The notes under the pieces were generated by a model that worked only from the letters and a program-made list of their open reading frames with translations, was not told where the DNA came from and did not search any database. A stretch of 63,086 nt of DNA, the filler included, from Aduncisulcus paluster (lineage: Eukaryota): the NCBI GenBank assembly GCA_024181965.1. It is 7 parts of 7 records of this genome, joined end to end, with 100 filler letters (N's around TTAATTAATTAA, not from the genome) between each part and the next. Parts side by side here need not be neighbours in the genome. Positions count along the whole stretch, not along the records: positions 29,098 to 35,128 come from BQXS01010945.1; 6 more parts are not named here. One strand, 5' to 3'. The position numbers were made by a program, and so were the translations under genes. This document shows, in pieces, positions 17,261-53,344 of this stretch (within the stretch, counting starts at the first letter, position 1; each line of letters starts with the position of its first letter).

Positions 17261-17360
17261 NNNNNNNNNNNNNNNNNNNNNNNNNNNNNNNNNNNNNNNN
17301 NNNNTTAATTAATTAANNNNNNNNNNNNNNNNNNNNNNNNNNNNNNNNNNNNNNNNNNNN
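17261..17360. other. Artificial contig linker
   Basis: N44-TTAATTAATTAA-N44. Confidence 0.99.
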
Positions 17361-17980: not shown

Positions 17981-18104
17981 CGTAACTTTCTCTTTTGCTC
18001 TCGATTGGCGCTCTATTCGTAAGAAATACAAACAAAAGCCAGTTATTCTAAGTCTATATCGAAATTAATAACACCAACGACTAAAACCTACCAGTACAGC
18101 AATA

Positions 18105-21100
18105 ATGTCTTTTTCTAAACCAACAACAAAGCCTTTCAGCAAAGAATGTCTTGAACAATTGAGAGTTTCTATTAAAAGGACCACCTTTGAATTAATTCCA
18201 CTTTATGAAAAATCTCAATCACGTCTTCAGGCCATCTTTGACGAATACACGACACCTTCTGCTATCACATCCAATCGAGATCTCTTCTCTCTTTGTTTCG
18301 AATGTTTATCCCTGTTCGTGAAGCATAAAGTTACGAAAGAAGAAGATGGAGAAGAAGATATTGTGGTCATCCCCCATAAATCTTCCATCAAGAAGATTAT
18401 TGACTCTTTCTTACCTCAAATGATCAAAGTTGAATCTGTTCTGAGGATGAATGGAGAAATGACAAAAAAAGAAGAAGAAGAAAGTGGAACAAAAGAAGCT
18501 GGCGTGAGCTCTATCACAATGCTGTTGTTTAGAATTCTAAATGTCTCTCTTGATAAAGTTGAATCCTTTCGAATCAAAGTATATCCTCAAATTACTTTTC
18601 TTCTCTCCAATATGTTAACTTTGGGTATATGCCTGCAATTTGAGAAATCTCTCGTTGATGATCTCCTCGGTACATGTAGAAATATCGCCTTTGCCACTGA
18701 TGATTCCACCAAGAACTCCCTTTTATCCATTCTTCTCCCTCATATCTTACCTTGGATGAAGAAGTATCCTGACAAGAAGTTCTTTTTCTTGTGGTCCAAT
18801 ATCTTGAAGAATATTACCCTTGATAAAGATAACACCGACCCTCATAAAGATCGTTCCTCACGACTCTGGTTTGTCTTCCATCCTGTCTTGGACGTGATTA
18901 AGGACACTGCTTCCAAAGGTGTTACATTTGATGATGAAGCTGTCATTCGTTGTTTTCGGTTCTTTGGTAACTTGAGTTGTATTCCTTCCGAAGCCATTGA
19001 AGTATATGATTGTGTTAAAGATGGACTTCTTGATAGTTGGTTTGAGATGGTAGAAGAAGAAGGAAGAAAAAGATGATAGAGCCGGTGTTAAATGCTGGTC
19101 CAAACTTGTTTCCATGCTATCAGAAATCCCCTCAATTGTTCCTCAACTTTCACCTAAATTTGATGATGAGATGTATTGGTGCATGAAAAATGGAGGATGG
19201 AGAAATTATTATTCAAGGTATCTTGGTAATTGTTTTGCTTCTCTCAAGAAATGGAAGGAATTAATTGATTTTATTGAGAAATGCGCTGATTCTGAGTCAA
19301 CTGCTGAACTCTTCGATGAACATCGAGATGAGATTCTTTCTGTATTCCTTGAATACCAATCAGAGAGTGAGATTGAAGAACATAAGAGAGAGATTATTCT
19401 TTGTGCTCAGTGTTTAGAATTGTTTGTTAGACATGTTATTTCTGGAAATGAGATCTATCTCCCTAATTCTGATTTGAATGATCTAATTGACATTTTCATT
19501 GATCATTTATCAAGGGTTGAGCAGGTATTGGAAGGAGATGTTGATGAAGAGTATTGTAGGATTTGTGCTGGTTATACTTTCAAAGTTGAATATAAATTGG
19601 ATTCCTTCTTACCCAAAATATCTTCCACTTTCCATCGTATTCTTGAAAGAGGAAGTGACAAAAAGTTGAGAGATGAAGTAACTCAAAATTTATTGATAAC
19701 TCTCAAAAACATCTCTATTTCACCAACTTCTTCGGCTCGGTATTCTATTCTCACCCTAATCAAACCATATATCAGAGATTGGCTAAGAATATACAACGAT
19801 AGTGAGTGTTATGGACATTGGATGATTATTTTATCAAAAAATACCCTCTCAAGTGATGATGAAACACCCGACAAATCCCTCTGTTCTGAAGCTTGGCCTC
19901 TCTTCCACCCTGTTCTTGATGTTGTTAAGAGAGAGTTTGTTGGGGATAAGATTGTTGAGGATAATCATGAATGGGTTTTACGATTCTTCTCCAACTTATG
20001 TTGTGATTCATTACATTCTCTTGAGATCTTTGATAATATTAAAGAGCTTCTTGATGAGTGGTTTGAAACTATAAAGAGGAAAGAATACCAATGGGGTATC
20101 ACATTATGGTCGAATTTCATTTCCGTGTTCTCAACTATTCCATCTCTTTTCCCTCAAATTTGTCCAAAGTTTGATGCCAACATGGAATGGTGTAAAAATA
20201 ATGGAGCACTTTGGGGAGATTACTCAAGGTATCTTTCCAATTCTTCACCTTCTTGCCACAACTTAATTGAATTACTCAATCTCATTAGGCATTGTCCTGA
20301 TTCCACATCCACATCAAAACTATATTATGAATACAAACATCAACTGTTATCTGAATTCCTTTCACGCGAATCAAATTGTGATATTGAGGAACATCAGAGA
20401 GAAATTATTCTTTGTGTTCAGTGTTTAGATGAGTTTGTTAGACATATTATTTCTGGAAATGAGATCTATCTCCCTAATTCTGATTTGAATGATCTCATTG
20501 ACACTTTCATTGATCATTTATCAAGAGTTGAGCAGGTTTTGGAAGGGGATATTGATGAAGATTATTGTAGGATTTGTGTGAGTTATTCTTTCAAAGTTGA
20601 AGATAAACGGGATTCCTTCTTACCCAAAATATCTCCCACTTTCCATCGTATTCTTGAGAGAGGAAGTAAGGAGAAGTTGGGAGGTAATGTTGCTCGGGAT
20701 TTATTAGCAACTCTCGTAAACATCTCTTATTCTCCTTCTTCTTCAACTCGATCCTCTATTCTCACCCTCATCAAACCATATATCGGAGGTTGGTTGAGGA
20801 TATACAATGATAGTAAGTGTTATGGAGAGTGGATGTTTATTCTATCACATATCACCCTCTCAAGTGATTCCTCAGGTGATGAAACACCCGACAAATCCCT
20901 CTGTTCTGAAGCTTGGCCTCTCTTCCATCCTGTTCTTGATGTTGTTAAGAGAGAGTTTGTTGGGGATAAGATTGTTGAGGATGATCATGAAAAGGTTTTA
21001 TTGTTCTTCTCCAACTTATGTTGTGATCCATTGCATGCTCTCGAAATTTATGATAATGTTAAAGATCTTCTGGATGTGTGGTTTACAGTGATAAAGAAGA

Positions 21101-22348: not shown

Positions 22349-25300
22349 TTATTTCCTATTAATCTTGGATTTTCCGAGTTTCCATTTCATGACATCAGAC
22401 GAATATTTCATAATACTTTGCATATTTTGATTCTGATTTTTGCCCCATTTCGTTCTTAAAATAGTTCCAAGTTCGAAAGGGTCAGCAGCAATACTTGACT
22501 TTTCTTGACTTATTTTCTCAATTTCTTCAAAATCAGAGTAAGATGGTACAGATAAATGACTCAATTTGGACAAACACTTAAAGAATATTATCTTCATATT
22601 CTCTTCTTCTTGTTGTCTCATCTCTTTCTCGATTGTGAAGGTCTTGGATTGCTCAAGAACAGATGGGAGATGACCAAGCCTGTATTGTAACATAGAATCG
22701 CGGTGTTCGTTTTCTTTATCACGGCTGGCCTTTGCTTTCACAAAAGATATCAACTTAATTGTTTCCTCAGATAACTTTTCTGAAGGGTTTTTGGACATAT
22801 CTTCAATCAATGAATCTTGAGAATGAGGAATTTCAATACCAATTGAGTCCGTCAGTCCAGATATCTCCCCTGTCCTCTCACCGATAACAGCACTAATATT
22901 AGGCGGACTCAGTGCAAAAGAAGGAGATTGTAATGCATCACTTGAATCGGCAGTAACAGAAGAACCAGATAAGCCATGTTTCTTCTCCTCGCTCATTCTC
23001 TTAAGGTTTGCAATGATATATTGTTTCTTTTTGCTTTTCTCCCCATGGTTATCTGATAGTGCACTATACAATGCTGTCTGTTGAGTTTTTCTTGGTACTT
23101 CTTTCACAGAGGAAGTATCATCATCTCCTTTCTGAGACATATCATCTTGATTACTTGAAACTGCAGCGGACAGGGCACTTGAAATGGCACCTTTCCTTCC
23201 GAATTTGAAGGAAGAGGAAGAGGAAGAGGAAGAGGAAGAGGAAGAGGAAGAGGAAGCGATAGATGATCTGCTATGGTGACTGGCATCTCCAAAGCTGCCA
23301 AAACCACGGCGAGAGCGAGTTGCTACAAGATGTTCAAGCTGCTCTTTCTGATCTTTCACTTGCCGGTTTTCAACGATTCTCGCCTCAAGACGGTCTCTGA
23401 GAAGGCTCACTTCGAGTTGGGTATCGGCTAGAGATTGTTGGAGTACGGTTTGCGCCGACTCAGCAGCTGAGAGTGCCGAAGACAAATCTCCGAGAGATGA
23501 GAGTAAAGCAGCAGTTGCAGAACTTAAAGGCGGAAAGGATAAATAGATAGAAGCGTTAGATCCTGTCATTGGTACTTCACCAACATAAGGAGATGATGTA
23601 GATGATGATGAACCACAAATACGAAGTAAAGCATCATGTAGCTCCAACACACGTGAAGCAAGAATAGAATACTGGACCATCTGTGGATCTTCCTCCTCCT
23701 CTTCTTCATCTTCCTCTTGTTCATGTTCTTTTTCTTCTCCTTCCTTTTCTTTTTTCCGCAGTCGTCTACTTTTTGTGCTTCTATCTCTATTTAGTTCTTT
23801 AACATGGTCTTGTCTTTCCTTGACCGTGCCAGAGTCATACCCACCAATGGTAAAGGAAGAAGAGAGAGAGGAGGAGGAGGAGGAGGAGAGAGAGGAGGAG
23901 GAAGGATCAAAAGAAAGTCGTGAAATGGCATTCCACACAACCCTTGTCCGGGCATATACTTGATGGTGGAGATTAGAGGAGGAAGTTATGCCAAATGAGA
24001 GAGAAAGACAATGGACAAGACTGGATAGAGCTTTTTCACATTCACATTTAATCTTCATATCTTTATCTCTCTCACAAATAGAAGGATCCTTCGAGATTAC
24101 CTTCTCCTCTTCCTCTTCTTCTTTTCCTTCCTCTTCTTCTTTTCCTTCCTCTTCAGATGTTTCTGAAAGCATATCGTTCTCCTTGAGATATCTCCATAGC
24201 TGGACAGCACAGGCATATATACCACATGAAAGCCCACATTCACACACGGGTGGATCGAAGCATGATAAGAATGCCGGAACAAAGATGTTATTGTTTTCAG
24301 AATACATAACGGATGCATCTGAAGTCGAATGTTCTATTTTTGCTGCATGAAGAGTGTCTGAGTTCTTTGTAGTGCCACTTGATCCACTCGAGTTGAATAT
24401 CTTTGAAGTCTGGAGAGCTTGGATACAATCACGTTCACAAGACAAGGCTGGAATGGAAAGAAAAGAAGAGGAAGAGACAGATGGAGAAGAGGAAGAAGAA
24501 GATAAAAGTTTAGGTGACACAATAATTGTTGACGATTTGGAACCTGAAAATTGTTGTGTTATGGAATAAAATAACGGCAACACTTGAGTCATTGTTTGTT
24601 CTTGAATGCCCTGAATTTCTTTATCTTTTTTCCTCATTCCAACTCCACTGACTTTTAAACACACATCACACACTTGAGAGAGTAAAGAATTCACAGCGGG
24701 AATACCTCCAGGGTAACGTAGAAAGCACACGGCACCTTCTTTTCCTGCTTCCACGAGTCCGTGGATGAGTGTTTTGGCACATATCCACACAAAACATGAG
24801 TTGAATTCGTTAGGATCGAACGAGAACATGTCAAAAGATTTAAGCGAGGAGAGTTTAACAAGAGTTTGAGACGAAGCTTTAATAATATCTGCACAAACAG
24901 CACAAACTGAAGAGAGAAGACCTAAACAATGACCGACATTCATACAAAGGTCGACAAATCCAGATAATGTTTGAATGAACAAGTTCTTAGAAGCTGGTTT
25001 ATCCTTGAATATTGAGGTAATTAGAGGAGTTATTATGGTATTATTCGCAATGGAGGATGCAATTTGTCTCATTTTGGCTTGGGATGAGGATAAAAAGGAG
25101 GCAGATCGCCAAGTCTGCATTTCTTCAACTGAAGCGACATTAGCGATGGCTTGACCGGCTATTCTACGACGGTCAGCTTTAACTCCGTCCAATTGGGTCT
25201 TTGTGACCTTCAAAGCAGATGCCAATTCTTTTGATACGTGTCCAGCTTTAAGAGCAACTTTTTCAAGGGCTGAACATCTCGTTTCAAGAATAGAGCACTT

Positions 25301-25735
25301 TCTATTCGACTCAGAAGCTGAAATAATTGCCGATGAAGCTCTTTCTTCAGCTTTATCAATTGTCATACGTAAATCTTTCAATAACAACTGTTGTTTATCT
25401 TTTTCTTTTCCATAAGAATCAAGACGTTTCATTAAAGTATCATTTTGTTTTTCTAATTCGGCTGTTCGCTCTCTTAATTCTATATTATCAGAAGTTATTT
25501 TCCCATTTATATAATCAGCCTTTTCCGCGGCTTGAGCAAAGCTCTTGAGTTCTAAAAGTTCATTTTTATATTTTTGAATGTCGACTTCAAGTAGTTTAAC
25601 CCTATCTTCAGTCTTGGAAGCCTCTTTTTGCGCTTGTTGAAGCTGTTGGACAGCTGAAACTAATATTTTGTTTTGTGCCACACATTTTTCGAGTTTAGCG
25701 GCCAATTTTTTGACAAGAGACTCCGATTGAGACAT
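22349..25735 (-). CDS. Coiled-coil protein with a KLRAQ/PPP1R21-like N-terminus
   Basis: First ATG at 25735. N-terminal and central heptad-rich regions. KKLAAKLEKCVAQNKILVSAV resembles the KLRAQ motif. Confidence 0.55.
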   Translation of the reverse strand: MSQSESLVKKLAAKLEKCVAQNKILVSAVQQLQQAQKEASKTEDRVKLLEVDIQKYKNELLELKSFAQAAEKADYINGKITSDNIELRERTAELEKQNDTLMKRLDSYGKEKDKQQLLLKDLRMTIDKAEERASSAIISASESNRKCSILETRCSALEKVALKAGHVSKELASALKVTKTQLDGVKADRRRIAGQAIANVASVEEMQTWRSASFLSSSQAKMRQIASSIANNTIITPLITSIFKDKPASKNLFIQTLSGFVDLCMNVGHCLGLLSSVCAVCADIIKASSQTLVKLSSLKSFDMFSFDPNEFNSCFVWICAKTLIHGLVEAGKEGAVCFLRYPGGIPAVNSLLSQVCDVCLKVSGVGMRKKDKEIQGIQEQTMTQVLPLFYSITQQFSGSKSSTIIVSPKLLSSSSSSPSVSSSSFLSIPALSCERDCIQALQTSKIFNSSGSSGTTKNSDTLHAAKIEHSTSDASVMYSENNNIFVPAFLSCFDPPVCECGLSCGIYACAVQLWRYLKENDMLSETSEEEGKEEEEGKEEEEEEKVISKDPSICERDKDMKIKCECEKALSSLVHCLSLSFGITSSSNLHHQVYARTRVVWNAISRLSFDPSSSSLSSSSSSSLSSSFTIGGYDSGTVKERQDHVKELNRDRSTKSRRLRKKEKEGEEKEHEQEEDEEEEEEDPQMVQYSILASRVLELHDALLRICGSSSSTSSPYVGEVPMTGSNASIYLSFPPLSSATAALLSSLGDLSSALSAAESAQTVLQQSLADTQLEVSLLRDRLEARIVENRQVKDQKEQLEHLVATRSRRGFGSFGDASHHSRSSIASSSSSSSSSSSSSSSFKFGRKGAISSALSAAVSSNQDDMSQKGDDDTSSVKEVPRKTQQTALYSALSDNHGEKSKKKQYIIANLKRMSEEKKHGLSGSSVTADSSDALQSPSFALSPPNISAVIGERTGEISGLTDSIGIEIPHSQDSLIEDMSKNPSEKLSEETIKLISFVKAKASRDKENEHRDSMLQYRLGHLPSVLEQSKTFTIEKEMRQQEEENMKIIFFKCLSKLSHLSVPSYSDFEEIEKISQEKSSIAADPFELGTILRTKWGKNQNQNMQSIMKYSSDVMKWKLGKSKINRK

Positions 25736-26194
25736 ATTTGTATCAATGTAGAGCAAGAAAAACCTATAGCGAAATTCCTATCTTCATATGTCAATAATAA
25801 TGACTTTTCATAGGAAGATTATTTCACAATATTGATAATTATTGCCGGATTCAATTATGATACTTATTCTAATTGCTATAATGAAGACAATATTCCTTGG
25901 AATCCTTTATCAATGATTCTGGCAAATTTTGAAAATTCATTCCTCTTTATATTGGATATAATTACTATTTTAAACTAATTTTTCGCATAAAAAATTCAGA
26001 ATACTAAACAGAAAGATGATCATCAACATTCTACTTTGAAGGTAGAAATCTGCCATGTAAAATAGCTAATAAGAAAATATAAAACGCTATAATTCTTTAG
26101 AATTGTGAACAATTATGATAGAATCCGGAATATCTTCGAACATTTCAAAGTGGTAAAAAAAACTTTCACTTTTGCTTACCTAGTTGTTAAGAAC

Positions 26195-26292: not shown

Positions 26293-27792
26293 ATGGCTGG
26301 TTTCCCAACACCCGTTAGTTCCGTTGTCCTCCTCTCCTGGGCCGATAAGATTGCTGCTGCTATGCCCTCTTTCCGTGCTCTTGCCACTGTCAAGGAGTTC
26401 TGTGAGTTCCTCCAAGCTGATGGCTCCATTGGTGTTACCCTTGCTCAATTAATCGTTGTTCTCGAGCCTCTTAAGGAGATGAACAACATGCTCATCGATG
26501 CCCTCGAGCTTCTCCAACCCGCTTTCCTTCCCTCCTCCGGAAATGATATCGTTGTTCTTGTCAAGTTCTTGAAAGAGGCTCTTGGTAATCCTCGGTTTGC
26601 TGTTGATGCTCTGAAGTTGATTGAGTGGGCCCGTTCTTCAAAGGCCTTTGATGAGGAACTCATTAAGCTCTGTTGTTCCGAGGACGATGGATCCATTGAC
26701 ACTGAAAGCCGCGAATACATATCCATCAAACGTACCCTCGATCTTCCCCTCTGTGTCCGTCAAGTAGGTGTTAACATCTTTGGTCCCACTGTTGAAGGAG
26801 ACAACATTGTCTTCATTCTTGACAGAAGTGGAAGTATGGGAGAAAAAGTCACTTTAGATGGCACTACCAAGACTAGAGCTGGATGGGTGTCCGATTCCAT
26901 GTGCCAAATGCTCCCAAGACTCAAAGAAGGTGCTAACTTTGGCATTGTTACTTTCGACACTGCTCTCGAGCACATGTCATCCACCCTTGTCACTGGTTCC
27001 GACGCTATTGATGCTGGTATGGCCTTCTCCACTGGTCCCCATGTTGCTCCTCGTAATGGTACCAACATTTCCATGGGTCTTGCTTCTGTTCCTGCCTATG
27101 GTACTGTTGACACTGTGTACTTGCTCTCTGACGGTGAGCCCTACTCTGGAATCACCAGTCCTTCTGCCATCGCTAGCTGGGTCAAGACTAATCTCCCCAA
27201 CACTGTCATCCACACTACCAACTTCCTTGGAGGTGCTACTGCCAACGCTTACCTCTCTGCCATTGCCAAGGCTTCTCGTGGTACTCACAAGAACATTACT
27301 CCTCAGAGCATTGAGGAGTTGAAGGTTAACGTCTTCAAGCCTGAACTGGTTGCTGAGCGTATTGCTGCCCAGATGCCTGGTCCTGACAGACGTGCTTTGT
27401 ATGAATCTGGTGCCTCCGCTGGAGCTGGATTCATGGGAGCCATGGGTATGGGCGGTGGAATGATGGGAAGTATGATGGAAATGGCCAAGAAAGCCGTGGA
27501 ACAAGAGTACGCCAATGCTGGACTCACTGTGAACAAGGACAAGGTCCAGGACATGAGCGCCCAGGGTGCTGCCATGGGCGGAATGGCCCAAGGAATGATG
27601 GGCGGTGTCATGGGTATGGGTGGCATGGGTGGAATGCCTGGAATGGGTGGAATGCCCGGAATGGGCGGAATGATGGGCATGGGTGGAATGCCTGGAATGG
27701 GTCAGCAACCTCAACAACAACAACAAGGTGGTATGATGGGAGGTATGATGGGCGGAATGATGGGTGGAATGATGGGTGGAATGGGATTCTAA
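26293..27792 (+). CDS. von Willebrand factor A domain protein with a Gly/Met/Pro-rich low-complexity tail
   Basis: MIDAS motif VFILDRSGSM, GTNI, VYLLSDGEP. C-terminal (GGMPGM)n and poly-Q. Confidence 0.9.
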   Translation: MAGFPTPVSSVVLLSWADKIAAAMPSFRALATVKEFCEFLQADGSIGVTLAQLIVVLEPLKEMNNMLIDALELLQPAFLPSSGNDIVVLVKFLKEALGNPRFAVDALKLIEWARSSKAFDEELIKLCCSEDDGSIDTESREYISIKRTLDLPLCVRQVGVNIFGPTVEGDNIVFILDRSGSMGEKVTLDGTTKTRAGWVSDSMCQMLPRLKEGANFGIVTFDTALEHMSSTLVTGSDAIDAGMAFSTGPHVAPRNGTNISMGLASVPAYGTVDTVYLLSDGEPYSGITSPSAIASWVKTNLPNTVIHTTNFLGGATANAYLSAIAKASRGTHKNITPQSIEELKVNVFKPELVAERIAAQMPGPDRRALYESGASAGAGFMGAMGMGGGMMGSMMEMAKKAVEQEYANAGLTVNKDKVQDMSAQGAAMGGMAQGMMGGVMGMGGMGGMPGMGGMPGMGGMMGMGGMPGMGQQPQQQQQGGMMGGMMGGMMGGMMGGMGF

Positions 27793-28150
27793 TCCAGAAG
27801 ATTCAACTCTGTCTTTTTACATTTGGTTTCTAATGTGTCAATATTTTAGTTCATGTTTTTGATCCATTTTATATGATGGATTCATATCAAGGTTAATTTC
27901 TCCTTCTCGGCAATTAATTTGTTTGATTTTATTCTATTTGGCCTGTTAAATAAAGGTGATTATCTTCGATTTGATGACTTTTTGAAGTTGATGATTTCGC
28001 CGTCGTATTCATCCCTTATTAAGGAGGTAAAAGGACAATAAAAAAACAATTATAGATTTTTAATGGTAATTTTTTTAAAATTGAATTGATTTCATCCCTT
28101 TTTCATTCTCCAATAATGAAGACCAATTTATTGGCATTTTGTGCTTGACA

Positions 28151-28997
28151 ATGAAGGCATTCGTAAAGAATTTACATAGTCTTTCCGCGCAAGGCAAAAT
28201 TCCTGTTGATGTGCAAAGTGTATGCCCTGAAGAAGATCCGATTGTTCTTGCTGGATACGCAAAATCCCTTGTAGGAAGAGGTTTTGCAACTCTGACGTAT
28301 CAAAATTATTTTTCATATGAATGTACTGCTGAAGGAAAGCTTATTTGTCAAGGATCTTCCCCAGAATTCAAAGTGATCCTTCAAGTTCAGGAAAGTGGCG
28401 AATCTGGCATTTGTGCCAAGAATGTTGACAAGATTGGACTTGGTCATGCTTTAAAACGTCGTTGGATATCACGTAAAAACGTTGAAAGTGAGACCTTCCT
28501 CTATCCCGTTTCTTCTGAAGTTCCTGAAGACATTGTCAAGAACTATTTATTGATTCTTGAGAAATGTCCAACTTCTTCAGATGTTCCTTCAAAAGAATTG
28601 AAGACTTTAGAGAAACGTAAGCTTGTGACAAAGGTCAAACATCAGATCCCAATCATTGGTCTCGTGAAAGGAATGGATATCCTTCTATCTCTCCGAAAAG
28701 AGATCAAAATGCTCACCTCTGACCTTCTCAAAAGTGGAGAATGGGAAAAGGGATACATGAAACCTCTGAATCTGAAAGCTCATGGTGTAGCTCCTCGTGC
28801 TGGTGCTCTGCATCCCTTAATGAAGGTTAGGAAGGAAGTTCGTGAGATATTTTTGGCCATGGGTTTCCAAGAGATGTGCACGGATCGTTGGGTCGAGTCC
28901 TCTTTCTGGAACTTTGACTCTCTCTTCCAACCTCAGCAACATCCTGCCCGTGACTCCCATGATACTTTTTTCCTCAAGGGAGAGGCTGCTCGTACTC
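28151..28997 (+). CDS. FARSA: Cytosolic phenylalanyl-tRNA synthetase alpha subunit (3'-partial)
   Basis: GALHPLMKVRKEVREIFLAMGFQEM, WVESSFWNFDSLFQPQQHPARDSHDTFF. Truncated at the contig end. Confidence 0.95.
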
Positions 28998-29097
28998 NNN
29001 NNNNNNNNNNNNNNNNNNNNNNNNNNNNNNNNNNNNNNNNNTTAATTAATTAANNNNNNNNNNNNNNNNNNNNNNNNNNNNNNNNNNNNNNNNNNNN
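28998..29097. other. Artificial contig linker
   Basis: N44-TTAATTAATTAA-N44. Confidence 0.99.
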
Positions 29098-29099
29098 CT

Positions 29100-32000
29100 A
29101 CTACAAAGAAAATTTATCAATGTGAAGAAGGAACTCATCAATTTACTATTGGATGTGATGCTGTGGTTGATACCTTCGATATTAGTGTATCATTGAACAG
29201 TGATGAATTCAAATGGTTTTCTTCTGCATATTACATCGATTCTGATGGAAATATTGGCGAAAAACTCCCTGTTCCCATGACTTTGTATGATTATGCCGAA
29301 AACAAAGATGATATTGGCGATGACTCTGTGACTCGTTCTGTCCTCCTCCGCATCTGGGCGGAACCATCGTACTCCAATCTCCCCGATACAGAAACCGGTT
29401 CTGTATTTCGTGGCGGATTTCCTGTTACCCCTTCAAGTGATGGGGAACTTTACAGTCGGGCTCTTCATTTCACTGGAGAAAAGCCACACATTATTCTATC
29501 TTCCATCCGTACATTTGATGCCACGACAGATATCGAATGGAATTCCGATTCCAATACCTGGGACATTGAGCTCCTTGTTCAGGAAGGTCTTGGTCATTTC
29601 ATTATCACTTCCCGAAGATCCATGAATTTCTCCTATAATACCATTAGTGCCTGTTCCTTCCTAATGGGTGATCCATCGTGGACTGCCACGACTAGTTCCA
29701 ATTCCGAGTCGTGGTGTGCTGTTACGGACACTTCATCCTTCGATACTACAGTCCAAACAGACTTCACTTTCCTCTGTTCGCCCTTTATGGATAGACATTG
29801 CATCGGTCTTCCTGTTCCCACGTCTTCCTTACGAGGGATTGTGTCACAGTCTTCCTTTCAGTATTTTGTCACCACATCCATGCGATTTGAAGTCCTTCCT
29901 GCCCCATCGACAATCACTGCCTCCTCACCTGCGGCACAACATCTGTCTTTCATTCCTCGTGGGGCCATTGGAATTGCTACGACTCCATCAGATCCCTTAG
30001 ATCTAAGCACAGTCATGCCTCTGGCTCGTGGTGTCCTCATTCAGAGTGTCGATTCTGATGGTTCTGGAGTATATTTTTCAATTGACAATCAAACGTTGAT
30101 ATTATTACCTCTTACTGACGATACCTCAAAGGACTGGGTTCCCATTACTGGTTTAACTCCTCGCCATGTTCTTGATCGGGATGGGAGATGGACGACCACG
30201 AATTCCATGATTGCTGCCGTCGGTTGCAATGTGTCTGAGAGTGGCGATTGTTCCGTGTCTTGGCTAAACGTTGGAGATAGCGAAGTGTTACACACCCTTG
30301 ACCATAACCTGACCCAAGATAACATCGATGAAGAGGGGGCGCTTGTTCCTCTTGCTAACGATGCCACCCTTGACTTATCGAGTGAATCATTAAGCGTTCT
30401 CGGCTCTGCTCACATCAAACATATCTCCACATGTGTCATCAGTACCACCAACGTGTCTATCATCCTATGTACCTTCCATGGGTCTGACAACGCAACATAC
30501 TTCGGGGAGATTGAATTGACTGCCCAAAATAAGGATGGAACTGCCGCAGCAGCTTCTCTAGAACAATGCACAAAGATATCCAGTTCTGAAGTTGACTATA
30601 CTATCTCCACTTTCCTTGAGGGAGGCCAAGACTTGATCTTACATCCCATGGAAATAGATGGCGGACCATTATATTTATCCACAGTACAAGGTGTTGGAAA
30701 GACCGAACTCAATATTCTATATCGAGACGGAACGCAATTTGATACTTCCATAGAGTATATTGAATCAATCCAGGCCAATCGACACGGACTCGTCGTTATG
30801 AAAAGCAACGAAGGAAAGCTCTTTGCTGGTGACTTTATAAATGGGATATTTTATGAAATTCATTCTCCTATATCAGATTCATCTTCCATACATCTCAGGT
30901 TTGGATCAGGAGGTGAACGTCTCGAGTTCCTTCAATGGAATACAGACTCCGCCTCTGTGTCTGGTGAGAAACAGCAGTATGTGATCCCATTTACATATCT
31001 TACGTTTACTTCAGAACTGATGTTACAGCAATATCCTTCAAATAATCGTTCCACTCTTCCTTTGACCTGTCCAATGAGTCGAATGGATGTCTCGGAGGTT
31101 CCTTTTTCCATCCACCTAGATTATTGTGATGACGAAGAATCATTCAGTATCTCTACTATCTCAAAATCAGCTACTCCGATATGGGTTAGCGTTATATACC
31201 CAAGTACTCTGGATGCCCCATCTGCCTCCCATAGTCTACAACTTGTCTCAGATAACTCCAAAGCCATTGCCATCAGCACTTCTCATTATGAGATATCAAA
31301 TAGTAAGAACGAGAATATGTGTGGAGCTTATCGTTTCGTAACAAATATATTCAGTCCGGGCTGTACTGTGTGGCTCAACATGCAGAGATCCATTTCCTTA
31401 TCTTCTATTCTCTCAACCGCTGCTATTTATAGTGCCACTGATTATGACACAAAAGTAGTAACGACCACAGAGTTGGAGACAGTCCATGAAGGATTCTTTT
31501 CCCTTCCTTCTTTCTCCACCGTTTCTCCTGTAGTCAGTATCCGAGCTGGATGTCCTCCGGGAAGACATATTCGCGTCAGCGGAGTTACGTTTGACTCTTC
31601 GCAATGTCCTGACTTTGCATCTGGTGGTTCCAAACATTCATTGGTTTCAAGCTCTGGCAAAATTGATTCTCTTTTGACGAAATCTTTCCTCGATTCCCAA
31701 CTTGTTGATCCAGACATTACTGAATACGATGTCGCAGAATTTGGATGCCCAATCTCTGTTTATCATGGAGTTGAATCGTACTTGCCGACGATTGAACTCT
31801 GGGACGGATCTGATAAGATACGCGACGTTTCGGCCGAGTTTATTATATGGGAAGTTCAAGGTAGAACAGATTGGGAAACCCTCATCACGTGTCAGGAGGC
31901 TGGCTGTTCTTATCCAGCTCAGAGTATGAAGACAGTTTGGGATGCATTTGATCATCCCACGATCACCGATCCAACAGGAAGGGACATGTGGGATTTCTGG

Positions 32001-32336
32001 GACAGAGAAGTCTATGAAAGCTGCAATACAGAGGATCTTAAGGGTGCAATGGCATCGTTAGATCAGTCATATCCCTTTTTGTCTGCCGATGGGGGCAATG
32101 GAATTGCTTTTAATAACATTGGAAATGATGGAACCTTTTTGTTCAGTGTGAAGGTTATTGATCCAGAATATACAGTGTGTGAACTCGAGACATATCTTGG
32201 CATGGACGTATATGGGGCACCTCTCAGTGGAACTGTGAATGTTATAGTTATATTATCAATTACTGCAATTTGTATTGGAGGATTGTTTGTGAGTTTCCTT
32301 CTCTCGCGAAAGAGAAATTCAAGTTTAGACGGATAG
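29100..32336 (+). CDS. CatSper auxiliary subunit epsilon/delta-like type-I membrane protein (5'-partial)
   Basis: Frame is open from the contig start. C-terminal motifs GCPPG, FGCP, DVSAEFIIWEVQGRTDW, AGC..PAQ, YESC, FSVKVIDPEYTVCEL, VYG, then one TM helix. Confidence 0.75.
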   Translation, partial: TTKKIYQCEEGTHQFTIGCDAVVDTFDISVSLNSDEFKWFSSAYYIDSDGNIGEKLPVPMTLYDYAENKDDIGDDSVTRSVLLRIWAEPSYSNLPDTETGSVFRGGFPVTPSSDGELYSRALHFTGEKPHIILSSIRTFDATTDIEWNSDSNTWDIELLVQEGLGHFIITSRRSMNFSYNTISACSFLMGDPSWTATTSSNSESWCAVTDTSSFDTTVQTDFTFLCSPFMDRHCIGLPVPTSSLRGIVSQSSFQYFVTTSMRFEVLPAPSTITASSPAAQHLSFIPRGAIGIATTPSDPLDLSTVMPLARGVLIQSVDSDGSGVYFSIDNQTLILLPLTDDTSKDWVPITGLTPRHVLDRDGRWTTTNSMIAAVGCNVSESGDCSVSWLNVGDSEVLHTLDHNLTQDNIDEEGALVPLANDATLDLSSESLSVLGSAHIKHISTCVISTTNVSIILCTFHGSDNATYFGEIELTAQNKDGTAAAASLEQCTKISSSEVDYTISTFLEGGQDLILHPMEIDGGPLYLSTVQGVGKTELNILYRDGTQFDTSIEYIESIQANRHGLVVMKSNEGKLFAGDFINGIFYEIHSPISDSSSIHLRFGSGGERLEFLQWNTDSASVSGEKQQYVIPFTYLTFTSELMLQQYPSNNRSTLPLTCPMSRMDVSEVPFSIHLDYCDDEESFSISTISKSATPIWVSVIYPSTLDAPSASHSLQLVSDNSKAIAISTSHYEISNSKNENMCGAYRFVTNIFSPGCTVWLNMQRSISLSSILSTAAIYSATDYDTKVVTTTELETVHEGFFSLPSFSTVSPVVSIRAGCPPGRHIRVSGVTFDSSQCPDFASGGSKHSLVSSSGKIDSLLTKSFLDSQLVDPDITEYDVAEFGCPISVYHGVESYLPTIELWDGSDKIRDVSAEFIIWEVQGRTDWETLITCQEAGCSYPAQSMKTVWDAFDHPTITDPTGRDMWDFWDREVYESCNTEDLKGAMASLDQSYPFLSADGGNGIAFNNIGNDGTFLFSVKVIDPEYTVCELETYLGMDVYGAPLSGTVNVIVILSITAICIGGLFVSFLLSRKRNSSLDG

Positions 32337-32499
32337 AATCTTTCGGATAAATGATTATATATAGGATTCAGTGACAAATATTTATTTATTATCTCAAAAA
32401 AACGAATAATACAAATTTAAAATTTGAAATTTTAATAAAATCTTATTATAGAGATGCGTAATGACGAAATTGATTTGAAATTTACAAAATTATTGACAT

Positions 32500-32916
32500 T
32501 TATTCTTCTTCAGCAAGTTTTGTTTCCGTTTCTGGCACAAGAGCAACAGCTTCAGCGTATGTTGCACTCAAAGTAAGAACAGGATCATCTTTAGCCTCAT
32601 CAATTGCCTTTTTGAGATCAACTAACCCGCGTTCCAATCTTAAAAATGTATTTTCCACCATTCCTTTGCTTTCTGCCAACACAGCTTTTTGTTGTCCTGC
32701 CCTTGCATGTTTCTCGCTCACAAGGGCTTCATATCTTGCTGTTTCAGTTATTACTTCTTCTTTATACATATCAAACTCTTTTGTTGTTCTAAATTTGGTT
32801 GGGGAAAAAAGTAAATCCAATATGACATTAAAATAATAATTCCATCAAGTATTGAAAAACAAAACATACCTTTTAACAACTCCAATCTTAATTTTTAACT
32901 TTCTTTCGTCGATCAT
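32500..32916 (-). CDS. TBCA: Tubulin-binding cofactor A, two exons (32916-32870 and 32788-32500)
   Basis: Spliced product MIDERKLKIKIGVVKRTTKEFDMYKEE...QQKAVLAESKGMV matches the TBCA consensus. 81-nt GTATGT...TTTAG intron. Confidence 0.9.
32789..32869 (-). other. Spliceosomal intron of TBCA (81 nt, phase 2)
   Basis: AG|GTATGT ... TTTAG|A. Removal restores the conserved GVVKR-xxKE motif in frame. Confidence 0.9.
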
Positions 32917-33160
32917 TATTGTTGATGTGCCAAAAACAAAAGCAAAAAATCGATTACTCTGTGAGGCATAATTTAAACTATTAAAATCAATTATCATCAC
33001 ATTCCAATGAATCATGTTGAAATTCATGAAATGATCAATGATACTAAAGTATAATACATCATAACTTGACACAAAACTCACCAATCATTTTTATTTCATT
33101 TTCAGAAAATGATTTTTTGCCGACCTTGTACCTTGAAAATGTCATGTTTCCTCCATCTAT

Positions 33161-35128
33161 TTACATCGATTTTGAAAAGAATATCCATTTTATCAGTTTC
33201 CATCCCGCCCAAACCAAGAATATAGTGAACAACGTGGATATACGAGCCAAAGGTCTCAAATTCACCCTCTTCTTTCTCAAAAACTTTGGATAATCTTCAG
33301 GATATTTCTTTTCTAGCAATTCAAGATTATGATTTATCAGTTTGGACAGCGATATAAGGAGATTTACCAGCCCAGGAATCTCATCATTCCTGATGGGCAA
33401 TTTGAGAATAGATGGTGTTGAAAAAGCCGAGACAAACCTTGACCTATCGACCGGAGACATCGTCAGCAATTGCTTAGATGTCAAAGAGCTTATGAATTCC
33501 GGATCAGAAGAGGCCATGACGACTTGTTTATGGAATGTACTTTTCCCGATTCGACTTAACCCGTGCAATACTTCCTTCTCTTCCTCTTCAATATCTCCCC
33601 TCTGAGGTATCACTTTAATAATTCCCTTGGTGACATCTGATTCTTCTATTTCTTCACCTTTTGTCTTGATAATTCTCGATAGTACTTGTAAGTGTTGGTG
33701 GATAGAATCAACAGAAATGGCGCGTTGAGTAGCTACGAACAACGATGTTGATGAGAAGAAAGTCGATATAAATAAAAGAACAATGCTGAAAAATACCCCA
33801 AAGAAATTCCCAATGGAAGAAGAAACAGAAACAAAATTCTTGGGCAAATACTTCATGATTCTTCCAGTATTTGGTGTTTCCAACTCAATTTTGCTCCCCT
33901 TTCCATGTCTTTTCCTCCATAAATTAACAAGTTTCAAATTCCTATGAACAATCGTTTGTGGGAAAACACTTTGAAGCCTTCGAACAGAATTCATGGCATT
34001 TGAATAGATTTTTTTAACAGACCCTACACAACAAGTAGCAAATTCGACATTCCTTGATGTTCCCCTTGCAACAATGACATCAGGAATGCACATTGAAAGA
34101 GAAGTAATAGCAACATTTTCTACCCCACAACACCCAATGGTCTCATCTTTCTTCAAAATATCGGAATCTCTCCGATTCTCCAAAAAGAATTGATTGAGAC
34201 TATTAATTGCACGAAAGTCTCCATAAATATCTTGAGAAACTCTCATGGCACCATCTATTCTCTCAATAAGTCCAATGATACTTGGGTGAGTGAGTAATAG
34301 GCTTGTTGAATGGAGAGATTGGATCAATTTGTCTTCACGATGACCCTGGGAGACATAACTGCCGCAAGATAATGAAGAAGAACGTCCAGATCCCGAGAGA
34401 ATTCCAGTCACATAAGTGGAAACATAGTCAATGGAGGAACTAATGATCGATAACATGTGCTGTGATGCAAAAAGAGGATATAAAACTAATAATCGAAGAG
34501 CTTCGAGAGGAGTTGGAATCGTGTCATGCTTGAAGGAGACAACAGATGAAAGCAAATCAAACGAATATAAAGTATTTGTGAACGAAGGAAAGTTCGAATG
34601 ATGAGCCAATTTAGGAATAGGATAAGAACAAAATCTTTCAGGGGATGAAATCGTTGAAGATGAACGTAATACAGGCATCGATGGCACCCTATCTATGATT
34701 TTATCTACCTCTTCCTTGGAACAAAACCCTTTCCTCTTTTCCAACCACTCTATGGCCTTGATTGTTGCTCTCCCACCAATCTTACGGGATTCCGCATCTC
34801 TCTCTCTCTTCTCTTTCCCCCTCCATAGCATACACGAAGACCAGAGATTGAGCAATAAATACACAGCGCCAAGACGATCCATGAAATGCTGCACACACAG
34901 ATGGGTCTGAATGAAGGAAATAAGTTTGGGAAGAAGAATGAATATCACAGGGGGGATCACAGAGAATCGTCTCGGCATTGAATGTAGCAATTCCATATAA
35001 GGTAAACTGAGTAAGGGCGATGAACTGTGTATTTTTGGAAGGGAAGATACTCTATACAGAGCAACAGCATGGAGGGTATCAGAAGGAGCATCAAGTGAGA
35101 AAGGCGTGTCAGGAAGGATATCCCGAGG
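33161..35128 (-). CDS. SMPD4 (neutral sphingomyelinase 3)-like tail-anchored protein (5'-partial)
   Basis: Frame is open to the contig edge. C-terminal PIRNDEIPGLVNLLISLSKLIN...RVNLRPLA plus TM resembles the SMPD4 family C-terminus. Confidence 0.6.
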   Translation of the reverse strand, partial: PRDILPDTPFSLDAPSDTLHAVALYRVSSLPKIHSSSPLLSLPYMELLHSMPRRFSVIPPVIFILLPKLISFIQTHLCVQHFMDRLGAVYLLLNLWSSCMLWRGKEKRERDAESRKIGGRATIKAIEWLEKRKGFCSKEEVDKIIDRVPSMPVLRSSSTISSPERFCSYPIPKLAHHSNFPSFTNTLYSFDLLSSVVSFKHDTIPTPLEALRLLVLYPLFASQHMLSIISSSIDYVSTYVTGILSGSGRSSSLSCGSYVSQGHREDKLIQSLHSTSLLLTHPSIIGLIERIDGAMRVSQDIYGDFRAINSLNQFFLENRRDSDILKKDETIGCCGVENVAITSLSMCIPDVIVARGTSRNVEFATCCVGSVKKIYSNAMNSVRRLQSVFPQTIVHRNLKLVNLWRKRHGKGSKIELETPNTGRIMKYLPKNFVSVSSSIGNFFGVFFSIVLLFISTFFSSTSLFVATQRAISVDSIHQHLQVLSRIIKTKGEEIEESDVTKGIIKVIPQRGDIEEEEKEVLHGLSRIGKSTFHKQVVMASSDPEFISSLTSKQLLTMSPVDRSRFVSAFSTPSILKLPIRNDEIPGLVNLLISLSKLINHNLELLEKKYPEDYPKFLRKKRVNLRPLARISTLFTIFLVWAGWKLIKWIFFSKSM

Positions 35129-35228
35129 NNNNNNNNNNNNNNNNNNNNNNNNNNNNNNNNNNNNNNNNNNNNTTAATTAATTAANNNNNNNNNNNNNNNN
35201 NNNNNNNNNNNNNNNNNNNNNNNNNNNN
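35129..35228. other. Artificial contig linker
   Basis: N44-TTAATTAATTAA-N44. Confidence 0.99.
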
Positions 35229-39176: not shown

Positions 39177-41562
39177 TTACCTTCCATTTATCGGATCAAT
39201 TAAGTTAATAATGTAGTTTGTAACATAGGCATCGTCCTTTCTTCTCCGTAAAAGGGTTCTGATATTTGAAGAAATGGTCGAAATATTAAATAATTTTTTG
39301 GCGACAAATCCAGGATCAAACTCAGTAATTGAGGTAAATTTCATTCTTTTCGATTCGAAATCTGATTTAATTTTGCTTGGAGCATTAAAAAGCGAATGAA
39401 TATCAATAAATCTTGAGAATAAACACAAAAGAAGCATACCACGAGTGTTTCCAACCCCATTCGGTAATAGAGCAAGAGCATTCCAGACAATATCAGGCCA
39501 ATTTAATGGTGATCCCCGCTTAACTTTCCTACTTGTGTGTTTGGCACCTTCTGAAACCGAGGAAAAATGTTGAAATGAAGGATATCGATGTCCATTCAAC
39601 ACAAAGGGGAAATACTGTCCAAGAAGAAGACAAGAAGAAGAAGAAAGAAGAAGAAGAAGAAGAAGAAGAAGAAGAAGAAGAAGAAGAAGAATATTTCTCT
39701 TTGAAAGTTGATTGCAAATCTTTTCGTGCAAGAATGCATTTCTCCATTTCTTGTTCTCTAAAAATAGAAATGAGAAACTTATGGGGATTGAAATACTCAA
39801 CAGGGAGCGATAAACCACCCTTTGATTGCTTCTGTGTCATGAAATAAATGATCATGTCTAACAAACTGTCATTTGGAATGGTAATCAAATATTGAGAGAT
39901 TGAGATGTCATCTGAACATTTATCTGATATGAATCTATATATCTCATATAAATTATTTACCGTCGTACCAGTACTCTCACAATAAATGGATTTAGAGTGG
40001 TTTTTGGAGGATGAGGAGTCTTTTATGAGAGCTTGTGATGGTACAGAAAACCGTTTGACAAATGATTCTTCAAGCTCTTCAATCATAAGTTTAATCTTCT
40101 TTTTCTTCTCGGCCATTGAATCAGTAGATTCTTTTTTGTCACCAGCACTTTGAGAACCGTTTTGATTGATTGCCATACTCAATGGGATTCCTGTCAAATC
40201 AGATTCAGCCAAAGTTCTCAATCGCAATTTAAAATCATTGTTTGCATCAGTTCTTTTATCCATATATATCATAATATCAATAAATTGTTCTATAAATGGT
40301 GAAATATCAACATCTATATATTCAGAGTAAGAAATTCTAGTTCTAGAACAATGAGATAAAGAAGATTCAGTAGATCTCGCCAATGGTTCTTCAATTTGCT
40401 TCGAATCTTTCTGAGATACGGAACGAAGCTCTTTCTTCTTCTTTTCCTTTTTCTCTTCATGTGAGGTATCTTCCCCATCTCCCCGCTTTAGTTCTTTCTT
40501 AATAATTGACACCAATGCAGGGTGGCTTAGTGAATACATACAATTAGACAGAGATAAAAGCGGTTGGATAGTAATTGTAGGTTTAAGTCCGAGTCTTGGA
40601 GAACAGAGGAGATGCAGAGTTGTGAGAATTAGATCATTCACATTCCAATGGATGGAAAAAGACTTTATAATATCGATAAAATTTGGAAGAGAAGGAAGAT
40701 ATGACATGAATATGAGAGAAGGAAATTCTTCTGAAACGGAGTGACGGAATAGGCATAATGACATCATAAAATGAATAATAATCGAAACTAATTCATGAAA
40801 GGCCGTTCGAATCTTGGAATAAATACCATCTTTGGAGGTTTGCGGTGAGGATTGTGTCTTGGGTATAGAAGGAAAATGTGGAAGAAATTTGAATTTATAT
40901 TGGGAGACGACTTTTTCATAACATATGGAAAATGAAGGAGTTCTCAAAGAAATGTTAAGATTATCCATTTGTGATATTAAATGCTGAGATATGGACAAAC
41001 ATTCCAAATCAAATTGAAAAGGTTCAGATAAACCTGGTGAAAGTTGTTTCATTTTTTTGGCAAAGCATCTCTCTTTTGATATGAAATAAATAGATTCTGG
41101 TATCGATAAATGAATTGAATTTGTTGACACTGAACAAAATCTATCAAAACTTCGAAGATATTCATCACAATATGAATCTACAATGACGCTTTCCTTTGAT
41201 ATCCTTGCATCAAACTCTTTCTCATGAGAAGATTTGGAGCTCTGAGAATCAAAATCAGTCCTTTTTGGGAGAAAATAATTTCCCGAACAAGATTTATAGA
41301 GAAGATAATCTTCGTTACTCTTATGCTTATCCCAGTGATATTTGCTCTGTTTTCTAACCATCTTATCCATCGTTTCTCTGCGTTTTAAAGGAATTATCGA
41401 GTCATCTTCGAAAATTCTTTCCTTAATATCATTGAAAATTGGGAGAGATCGTCTTTTTGTGGAATGATTTAATAAACTTATAAATGCTTTATCGGATTCT
41501 TTGTCTGGATCCTTAAGGGGCGATTTCGACTCACATCGCCGTAATTCTTCCAAAGACATCAT
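39177..41562 (-). CDS. Hypothetical protein, probably one gene split by a 1-nt indel in a (GAA)n microsatellite near 39645
   Basis: The poly-Ser of ORF 39529-41562 continues in the frame of ORF 39177-39818 if one extra base in GAAGAAAGAAG is removed. Confidence 0.6.
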
Positions 41563-42020
41563 CTTATGATCTTTGTCAAGTATATTGTGAGAAATGCCCT
41601 AAATGGTTTATCGACGAAACAATTTAAATATTTTTAAAGATATGAGTATGTATTGTATAAAGTAAATGAATCCTATGATTCGATAATATTGGTATTTCGA
41701 GAAAATTGCATTAAACCTCTCAATAGAAGTGACCTTTCAAATTTAATAATATAATCTTTTGTAATTGTAAGCTTTAAATATTTCTCTTTGTTTATATTCT
41801 TTATTGTAACATTTCTCAAGGCTATAGAATAAACTGGCCTCTATAATGCAATTTGAACCTATAGAAAAAGATTCAAGAGTAATAAATATTTATGTGGGGA
41901 TGTGTTCTTCATCATTATTCACTTTAGGAAAATATTATTATTGTGTGCAAGATCAGATTCTTCACAACGATGAGACCGACGATTTTGTTACATTATCAAC
42001 GAGAAACCGACAAATATTAA

Positions 42021-43048: not shown

Positions 43049-44942
43049 ATGGGTCTCTGCCAAAGTTTGTGTCTAATGCATCGAAAATCGGCATACATAT
43101 GTCCTTCGGTATGTTATTCATCTTTGTAATGTCTATATATATGACGAAATTTTACTTTATTAGAAAGATTTTATTTCTTATTCGTCATTTACACTCAATC
43201 CTAACATCATTTTTTTTTCTTATTTAATCAGGCAATTTTCATTGCTCCTCAATTTCTCCGTGAAAACATTAACTCCTGTACTCCAGTTCCTCTCGATCAC
43301 CCGGCGGTTCTCAAGCCAGTTTATTCTGATATCAAAATTTGTGACACTGAGCATGAAGACTTTGTTCATAGTTCCGATGCACAAGGTATGATGAAAGGAG
43401 AGTTCCATTTTGGAGAATTTACCCGCATTTCTATCCCATTTTCAATGGCATCCCCAATGAAAGGTGCTTACATCTGTATTGGAGATGCACCACTAGAAAT
43501 GATGGATTCATTCGATAAAACTGCGCCATCTTACCTTATTTTCACTTTTATTTCCTCTAAACACGGAGAAATCTCAATGAAATATGATTTTCCCGAGGAT
43601 TTGAAGAGTTTTAGTTGGTTTTTACTCCCCATTGACCTCTATGATGTAGTTCAGTGTCAAATTGAAGGAGTAGGAAGAAGAAAGGAAGCTTTTCATATTC
43701 AATACCTCACCTTCTTTAGGCCTGAGACCTCTGATGAACATCATGACCGTCTTTTGACCGAAGGTTTATTTTCAGAATCTGTATGTCTCACTTTTTTTAA
43801 AAATCATTATTACCTTAATTATTATTATTATTACATTTCATGAACTATTAATATATTATTTCTCTTTGATTCTCAAAATATTTCAAACTTCTAAATTTAT
43901 ATATTTTTATTTTTATTTATTAAACTATTTATTTATTTATCAGCCGATATATACTCCTAAATGTGTTAAACAGGGAGAAACAGCTGCCAAATGCATTATA
44001 GAGAACGTTGATGAACATTCTTTCGTCTCTTGTAATATTCTCAATGTCGGAGCCTGGAATGGATCGTTGTGCAAAGCTTCTAAGAATTATGACAAGAGTT
44101 TGGAAGCTCAAGCAATGCTTCGAGGAGAATCACTTGAAGATGGTGTGTCCTTTTCCCACATTCAAATCCCTCTTTCCTCTCCATCTTATGTTCACCTTGC
44201 TTGTCTTGTTGTCAATAAGTATGAATCTCATTCTCCTTCTCGGCTTGTCATTGTTTGTACCCATTCAGATGGCCGCAAATCTTTCTGTCGCTATGATTCG
44301 CTTGCAGATATTTGTGAAGAAGTTGATGGATCTGATGAGTATCCTTCGCCTTCTGATAAAGATCATCATCATTCATTATTAGGGAATTATGGATACAGAA
44401 GTTTCTCTCTTCCTATCGGTCTGGACGATGTTTTGACCGTTGAGTTGCAATCCAGGGAATCATGCAGTATTCAAACCTGTTCAAAAATATACCATTTGTG
44501 TTTCGTAGCTGCAGAAATTGAAAAAATAGACTTGCATTGTGAGGAATCTGACTCAAAGGAGAAAGTTCTTTCAGTTGCACATGATATGGCCAAAGAGGGA
44601 GAAGGAGAAGAAGAGGGAGAAGGAGAAGAAGAGGAAGAGGAAGAAGAAGAGGAAGAAGAGAAAGAAGAGGAAAAGATTGAGGAAAAGATTGAGGAAGATA
44701 AACAGGAACAGAAAGAAGAAGAGAAGAAAGTGGAAGGAAAAGAAGAAATAGAAGAAATAGAAGGAGAGGAAGGAGAGGTTGAAAATGAAAAGAAACAATC
44801 AAGTGAGGATCATTCAATATATGTTGGAATGAAGTTAAAGGAAGATGGGAGTGTTGTCGGCAGCCGTATGAATGAAGAAGAAGAAGTCAAGGAAGAAGAA
44901 GACAGTTTTTTTGATACGTATGAACAATGTGACTCAAATTAG
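43049..44942 (+). CDS. Lineage-specific repeated-domain protein, three exons (43049-43108, 43232-43780, 43944-44942), MGLC N-terminus, Glu-rich tail
   Basis: Two phase-0 GTATGT...ATCAG introns join MGLCQSLC...CPS, AIFIAPQF...FSES and PIYTPK... in one frame. Two related domains. Confidence 0.8.
43109..43231 (+). other. Spliceosomal intron (123 nt)
   Basis: GTATGT donor, CTAAC at 43201, T-tract, AATCAG acceptor. Removal preserves the frame. Confidence 0.85.
43781..43943 (+). other. Spliceosomal intron (163 nt)
   Basis: GTATGT donor, very AT-rich, TATCAG acceptor. Joins ORFs 43388 and 43866 in frame. Confidence 0.85.
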
Positions 44943-45081: not shown

Positions 45082-45181
45082 NNNNNNNNNNNNNNNNNNN
45101 NNNNNNNNNNNNNNNNNNNNNNNNNTTAATTAATTAANNNNNNNNNNNNNNNNNNNNNNNNNNNNNNNNNNNNNNNNNNNN
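45082..45181. other. Artificial contig linker
   Basis: N44-TTAATTAATTAA-N44. Confidence 0.99.
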
Positions 45182-53031: not shown

Positions 53032-53344
53032 TTATTACATCGATCAATTATATAAATCATTCAATTTGTGGATTTCGACCTCGAATAAATCAAGCCTTGA
53101 TAATTTCTGAAATTTTTTGGAATGAGGGGTAAAACGCGGTCATTGGATAAATTAAAAAAAAAATTTATTGCTATTGATCATTTTTATTTGCAAAATTGTT
53201 AATAATGTAATGTATAGCGAAAGAATTTTTCCAAGAAAAACTATCATTGCTGCTTGGTCTCAATCAATGAAAAGCTTTGAGGTTAAAGGTATGAATTATT
53301 TTTGTTTTTTATTAGTATTCTTGAAATTTTAGCCTACTTATTCA

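Follow-up and report, generated by a model that had tools for sequence, protein, structure and literature searches.

We analysed a stretch of 63,086 nucleotides (hereafter the window) from the genome assembly GCA_024181965.1 of Aduncisulcus paluster, in which a 5'-truncated gene on the plus strand (29100-32336) encodes a protein of the CATSPER delta/epsilon family. This family membership is established, and the encoded protein, probably orthologous to the epsilon-type "canopy" subunit of the sperm Ca2+ channel CatSper, would act by the mechanism proposed below. An earlier annotation of the same DNA, made without database searches (here called the sequence-only reading), had already suspected a CATSPERD/E-like protein, and membership in the delta/epsilon class was borne out by sequence profile, by similarity to sequences of solved structures and by the fold over the whole length.

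The Pfam family PF22850 (CATSPERD-E_C) matched residues 871-1071 of the encoded protein over positions 23-210 of the 215 in the profile (E 3e-30, 105.7 bits vs a cut-off of 27.4), and the only other Pfam family scoring on the protein was CATSPERB_C (E 0.032, 14 bits vs a cut-off of 27). When phmmer was run against the PDB sequences, only four distinct sequences lay at E<=1, all of them mouse CATSPER-epsilon or delta (7EEB, 9UBW), with epsilon matching residues 807-1054 at E 5e-20 and delta at E 6e-14. Searching 1.84 billion representatives exhaustively with phmmer gave 205 proteins at E<=1e-3, of which 138 reached E<=1e-10; almost all match residues ~780-1075. From 150 listed matches, 45 were picked for near-full length and aligned; all 45 carry PF22850, while CATSPERE_NTD2 is found in 33 (the closest ones included), NTD1 in 12, and the epsilon-type and delta-type propeller families in 10 each. 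At the sequence level, these comparisons point to the delta/epsilon class, with epsilon as the seemingly better match.

The window is composed of seven separate contigs chained by linkers (N44-TTAATTAATTAA-N44), and gene neighbourhood across a linker is meaningless. Linkers flank the contig with the CatSper-like gene on both sides, and genes outside its limits therefore have no physical linkage to this gene. The features concerned are as follows:

29098..35128, no strand: gene-bearing contig of 6031 bp, delimited by linkers N44-TTAATTAATTAA-N44 on both sides
29100..32336, plus strand: 5'-partial CATSPER epsilon/delta-family coding sequence, 1078 codons plus stop codon 32334-32336
32500..32820, minus strand: tubulin-binding cofactor A (TBCA) gene, convergent with the CatSper-like gene (Pfam TBCA, E 6.4e-10)
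6213-6312, 17261-17360, 28998-29097, 35129-35228, 45082-45181, 56799-56898: linkers N44-TTAATTAATTAA-N44, from the listed N runs
50681-50700: additional N20 gap, from the listed N runs

The frame is intact, running without interruption from 29100, the first full codon past the linker, to its stop codon, and no intron is evident within 29100-32336; at its 5' end the gene is truncated by the contig boundary. A Phe-tRNA synthetase fragment at 28085-28996 belongs to another contig and is not linked to it.

The protein shows the architecture of a canopy subunit, i.e., N-terminal beta domains, a propeller, a beta-sandwich, a cysteine-rich stem and one helix, in this order:

29100..29714, plus strand: N-terminal beta-rich domain(s), residues 1-205, 5'-incomplete (model strands 11-46, 79-89 and 129-171)
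29727..31037, plus strand: central beta-propeller, about residues 210-646 (VIA-align to propeller chains)
31062..31499, plus strand: beta-sandwich (immunoglobulin-like, Ig-like) linker domain, about residues 655-800 (model strands 659-732 and 757-796; boundaries inferred)
31518..32219, plus strand: CATSPERD/E C-terminal (stem) domain with the motif series, residues 807-1040 (Pfam 871-1071; phmmer 807-1054)
32235..32303, plus strand: single transmembrane helix, about residues 1046-1068 (hydropathy scan; model helix 1044-1077)
32304-32333, plus strand: basic cytoplasmic tail of 10 residues, beginning SRKR (sequence)

The sequence-only reading had described an ectodomain protein of more than 1070 residues with one C-terminal transmembrane helix, and the hydropathy scan agrees: in the 1078 residues there is a single hydrophobic stretch, with 19-residue windows above 1.6 starting only at 1039-1052. 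Most of the protein is ectodomain, and with one membrane helix near the C-terminus and only a short tail behind it, the topology is of type I. By collinearity, residues 1-205 seem to correspond to the NTD1/NTD2 region of epsilon; residues 106-157 align to residues 162-213 of the homologue from Carpediemonas membranifera, adjoining the Pfam CATSPERE_NTD2 match of the latter. VIA-align placed many propeller chains at Z 17-19 on the model, spanning about 208-659, and the Ig-like region 655-800 falls within a whole-length alignment to the epsilon chain 7eeb_H. The best-conserved portion of the protein is formed by the stem and the membrane-proximal part. Near-invariant columns of the family that are kept here comprise G817, C818, R822, C836, G882, P896, R922, C936, C975, Y991, F1015, D1021, C1027, L1029 and G1039. 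The ordered motif series that had been read from the sequence largely held, with nine of ten patterns found in order over residues 817-1039 (nt 31548-32216), whereas the spacing in 'YD..FGCP' is three residues rather than two. The mammalian motifs given alongside it were close, but not letter-exact against the alignment with mouse epsilon.

An AlphaFold2 model of the 1078 residues, built with the alignment of 45 relatives, supports the same assignment on the level of fold; comparison of a predicted structure with that of mouse CatSper had been proposed as a check by the sequence-only reading. Its confidence is high at the C-terminus, with the predicted local distance difference test (pLDDT) mostly above 90 for the last 200 residues and mostly 80-96 for residues 807-1040. 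In a Foldseek search of the PDB, rank 1 was the epsilon chain 7eeb_H (E 9.7e-39, 1120 columns), followed by delta (7eeb_G, E 4.7e-29), beta (9ubw_E, E 7.3e-22; 7eeb_E, E 1.4e-20) and gamma (7eeb_F, E 2.6e-16). The top five chains are thus exclusively CatSper canopy subunits, and the first unrelated chain was a sialidase at E 1.3e-07. VIA-align superimposed model residues 10-1042 on residues 104-933 of 7eeb_H (Z 24.0, 759 residues aligned). Of the chains in the solved CatSper complex, epsilon is the one that this moderate-confidence model matches best in fold over its whole length.

A further protein of the assembly gave hints on the missing beginning of the gene. In the exhaustive search, the final 80 residues of GKT32495.1 (partial, 342 residues) were identical to the first 80 of the frame (window 29100-29339), and the gene start therefore sits on another contig of the same assembly. 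Residues 199-301 of GKT32495.1 are weakly collinear with residues 26-124 of the Carpediemonas homologue (E 0.018), a stretch directly past the hydrophobic N-terminus of this homologue; the window therefore lacks the signal peptide and some 70 residues of the mature protein. Within its first 190 residues, GKT32495.1 carries a PIH1 CS-like domain (residues ~94-187, Pfam E 3e-06), and its NCBI name is 'Dynein axonemal assembly factor 6 like'. This gene model is probably a prediction fusion of two adjacent genes, both of them flagellum-related.

The locus is also present in the public run X1. One contig of 3467 nt spans the whole frame (29098-32403) with 0 differences, 0 gaps and no joints, extends 160 nt upstream of the window's contig and ends 67 nt past the stop codon. 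Depth was 118.5 over the CatSper-like gene, 604-726 over most of the neighbouring open reading frame (ORF; one bin reaching 1163) and 0 in one bin over TBCA, and the contigs break between genes. Such breaks and uneven depth resemble a transcriptome; as the library type is unrecorded and contigs by themselves do not demonstrate transcription, they are not counted as evidence of it. A long ORF on the minus strand, at 33161-35128 (>655 residues), has no Pfam match and runs off the contig end; one run X1 contig continues 1368 nt past this end.

The organism is A. paluster itself. Proteins identical to portions of the contig 29098-35128 are named by NCBI from this species, which the taxonomy record places in the Fornicata (Metamonada) as a Carpediemonas-like organism. 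The guess of an anaerobic metamonad flagellate, made from the sequence beforehand, was therefore right, A. paluster being anaerobic or microaerophilic. The convergent TBCA gene, which had been suggested as a check of the contig's taxonomy, served as taxonomic anchor and is 100% identical to an NCBI protein recorded for A. paluster on a contig of 6031 bp; a paralogue with 76% identity lies on a contig of 27,759 bp from the same organism and assembly. The NCBI model of TBCA, with 111 residues, is longer than the plain ORF with its 106, which makes a different start codon or a small intron likely. The published draft genome comprises 29.4 Mb in 25,863 contigs with an N50 of 4.6 kb and a GC content of 39.1% (PMC9933649); the window, in its own GC and in the shortness of its contigs, fits these statistics. 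For the CatSper-like gene, GC (0.436), GC at third codon positions (GC3, 0.382) and codon frequencies do not fall outside the values spanned by the window's 14 other long ORFs, with codon-frequency correlations to these of 0.37-0.82 (mean over all pairs 0.63). In a family tree of 25 rows with 22 inner branches, of which 3 are starred and 14 open, the protein falls into a group of five rows with Carpediemonas, P0005, P0018 and Thecamonas, at 90 in the Shimodaira-Hasegawa-like approximate likelihood ratio test (SH-aLRT). Measured by tree path, the protein lies nearest to Carpediemonas and to P0005, a close relative of the latter. This grouping is compatible with vertical descent without proving it.

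What the protein could do is suggested by the mouse system. In the mouse, the heterotetrameric canopy that lies outside the cell, directly above the CATSPER1-4 pore tetramer, consists of beta, gamma, delta and epsilon, each anchored by one helix (PMC13484710), and loss of delta or epsilon reduces CATSPER1 and removes the complex from sperm (PMC5362262; PMC13484710). By analogy, the A. paluster protein would be a type-I membrane protein of five parts (N-terminal beta domains, propeller, Ig-like domain, cysteine-rich stem and helix), whose ectodomain would build an extracellular canopy together with related single-pass subunits, namely beta, gamma and a second chain of delta/epsilon type. This canopy would sit over a tetramer of six-helix CatSper pore subunits, with the membrane helix packing against one of them, and would be needed for assembly and stability of the channel in the flagellar membrane; the channel in turn would let Ca2+ in and thereby alter the flagellar beat. 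Since conservation is best at the stem and the membrane-proximal part, we infer the same role in assembling and stabilising the channel. Partnership with a pore, a flagellar location and a role in motility or gamete behaviour would likewise extend the mouse situation to this flagellate. Carpediemonas is reported to have a CatSper pore subunit, beta and gamma (PMC8516963), which makes their presence in A. paluster more likely.

Several observations weigh against the epsilon-type assignment or the channel role attached to it. The model as a whole has a mean pLDDT of 64.4 and a predicted template modelling score (pTM) of 0.60; much of residues 174-422 is below 50, and the low-confidence first half of the propeller (174-211, 227-244, 255-299 and 319-367) falls into this part. 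VIA-align gave beta a Z of 22.2, nearly equal to the 24.0 for epsilon, and the structural choice of epsilon among the canopy classes therefore rests mainly on sequence. The Pfam families CATSPERE_NTD1, NTD2, propeller and Ig-like did not score on the protein even at E<=1, and its true start and signal peptide are absent from the contig. The family tree is poorly resolved, with 14 of 22 inner branches open, and the branch of the protein is long (2.35). Regarding the rest of the complex, no ion-channel Pfam family was found in 20 ORFs on the seven contigs, which at 63 kb out of 29.4 Mb is uninformative; that ORF scan apart, the A. paluster genome was not searched for pore subunits, beta or gamma, and the published assembly is only 40.4% BUSCO-complete (PMC9933649). 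Finally, no RNA-labelled library is recorded for the stretch, X1 being the sole run and of unrecorded library type.

A rival reading sees a true delta/epsilon homologue that now works without a CatSper pore, the pore genes having been lost in the lineage; it could, for instance, serve in surface adhesion, act as a receptor or pair with another channel. We regard this as unlikely, even though extensive lineage-specific loss of CatSper genes has been described (PMC5362262) and Salas-Leiva et al. report that the subunits are absent from all other metamonads sampled (PMC8516963). The N-terminal 800 residues, very divergent, without a Pfam match and on a long tree branch, would also fit relaxed or changed constraint on the ectodomain. 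On the other hand, the mouse subunits are described as strictly interdependent (PMC5362262; PMC13484710), the best conservation is found at the stem and membrane-proximal part, which is nearest to the pore in 7EEB, and Carpediemonas, the nearest named relative, is reported with a pore subunit too (PMC8516963).

Contamination of the assembly by another eukaryote in the culture is unlikely, and we give this origin of the contig very little credence. The culture contained food bacteria, the 25,863 contigs with their N50 of 4.6 kb were cleaned with similarity-only contaminant filters (PMC9933649), and the protein is not firmly placed by the tree; against this stand the 76%-identical paralogue of the same-contig TBCA on a 27,759-bp contig, the inconspicuous GC, GC3 and codon frequencies, the closest tree-path rows (Carpediemonas and P0005) and a fornicate protein as top phmmer match. 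That the gene is a decaying, non-functional relic is hardly credible at all. The long branch, the divergent ectodomain and the gene start unseen on the contig 29098-35128 could be taken in this sense, but 1078 codons are free of stops, the protein retains the cysteines and glycines that hardly vary in the family, and the 3467-nt contig of run X1 (library type unrecorded) holds the whole frame and ends 67 nt past the stop.

An epsilon-type canopy subunit in A. paluster also bears on the age of the system. The sequence-only reading had held that the organism may have a CatSper-type flagellar channel complex with this subunit class, which would support an ancient origin of the full complex. The novelty of this was overstated: a delta/epsilon subunit was already named in the related flagellate Carpediemonas, and the ancient origin of epsilon is largely in print. 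In Chung et al. 2017, epsilon is considered as ancient as CatSper1-4, beta and gamma, predating the unikont/bikont split (PMC5362262). The CatSper-like gene itself is an ordinary orthologue; new are a second fornicate genus with a CatSper canopy subunit and database matches in further lineages. Our literature search found no paper with both CatSper and Aduncisulcus, and among the matches listed for CatSper and metamonads only the Carpediemonas paper and its preprint mention CatSper. In that paper, the CatSper subunits are treated as an unexpected find, lacking in every other metamonad that was sampled, and its main text does not mention A. paluster (PMC8516963). The new fornicate and the Preaxostyla matches soften this published absence.

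Among the matches listed, named relatives come from Paratrimastix pyriformis (Preaxostyla), Thecamonas, Mantamonas, Rhodelphis, Cyanophora and Chlorokybus, and further from Chromosphaera, Sorochytrium and many animals; 'Eukaryota sp. TZLM1-RC' (P0029) is unclassified in the taxonomy, does not appear by name in PMC11316075 and was not counted as a metamonad. Together with the second fornicate genus, the matches in Paratrimastix, Rhodelphis, Cyanophora, Chlorokybus and Mantamonas suggest a wide retention of the subunit in free-living flagellates. The spread over many lineages, Preaxostyla, Archaeplastida and CRuMs among them, favours an origin of the epsilon type near the eukaryote root. One review gives a later date (PMC7935092); the taxa found here favour the older one, at least for the epsilon-type subunit. 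A more far-reaching reading, which we offer tentatively and consider doubtful as yet, is that the canopy, and probably the whole channel, was ancestral to the Metamonada and present near the last eukaryotic common ancestor, to be kept by free-living lineages (Carpediemonas, Aduncisulcus, Paratrimastix, Rhodelphis, Cyanophora, Chlorokybus, Mantamonas and Thecamonas) and repeatedly lost by parasites (Giardia, Spironucleus and Trichomonas). If so, what it steers in these free-living cells would be the beat of ordinary vegetative flagella, in feeding or taxis, and not that of sperm; or else its presence would point to a gamete stage not yet seen, in organisms whose sexual reproduction has so far escaped observation. 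Heterologous expression of CatSper has failed (PMC5362262), and a culturable free-living flagellate with the subunit could help to study CatSper outside sperm.

The remaining contigs of the window gave further side observations. An ORF of 2388 residues on the plus strand (9414-16577) has a C2 domain as its only Pfam match (E 3.6e-17), and its GC of 0.47 and GC3 of 0.50 are clearly above those of most other ORFs of the window; a similarly raised GC of 0.51 was found for a VWA-like ORF of 499 residues (26293-27789). For eight long ORFs, between 294 and 1142 residues in length, Pfam gave no family at E<=0.001, which points to a strongly divergent proteome:

1448-4669
7292-8977
18072-19073
22352-25777
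39532-41598
43758-44939
53333-54214
58124-60847

Among the closest known systems is that of Carpediemonas membranifera, whose protein KAG9389845.1 is named 'Cation channel sperm-associated protein subunit delta/epsilon' by NCBI. No protein from another organism matched better, with E 4.5e-45 and 36% identity across the last ~310 residues. Both proteins belong to the same length class and to free-living flagellates of the Fornicata, and their N-terminal parts are collinear. Similarity is barely detectable beyond the C-terminal third, however, and KAG9389845.1 scores on Pfam CATSPERE_NTD2 (E 1.7e-06), whereas the A. paluster protein does not.

With mouse CATSPER-epsilon (7EEB chain H; 9UBW chain H), the A. 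paluster protein has in common the order of parts and the C-terminal motif series (E 5e-20). The fold is matched over the full length, yet identity in the structural alignment is only 15–16%, and Pfam's epsilon families NTD1, NTD2, propeller and Ig-like do not score on it. Its host, unlike the mouse, is an anaerobic single-celled flagellate in which sperm are not known and sex has not been observed. Mouse delta (7EEB chain G), beta (chain E) and gamma (chain F) are likewise single-pass canopy subunits with propeller, stem and helix, and delta also has the PF22850 C-terminal domain (E 6e-14). All three score in the fold search, but more weakly than epsilon (Foldseek E 4.7e-29, 7.3e-22 and 2.6e-16, respectively, vs 9.7e-39), and delta is said to have arisen later than epsilon (PMC5362262).

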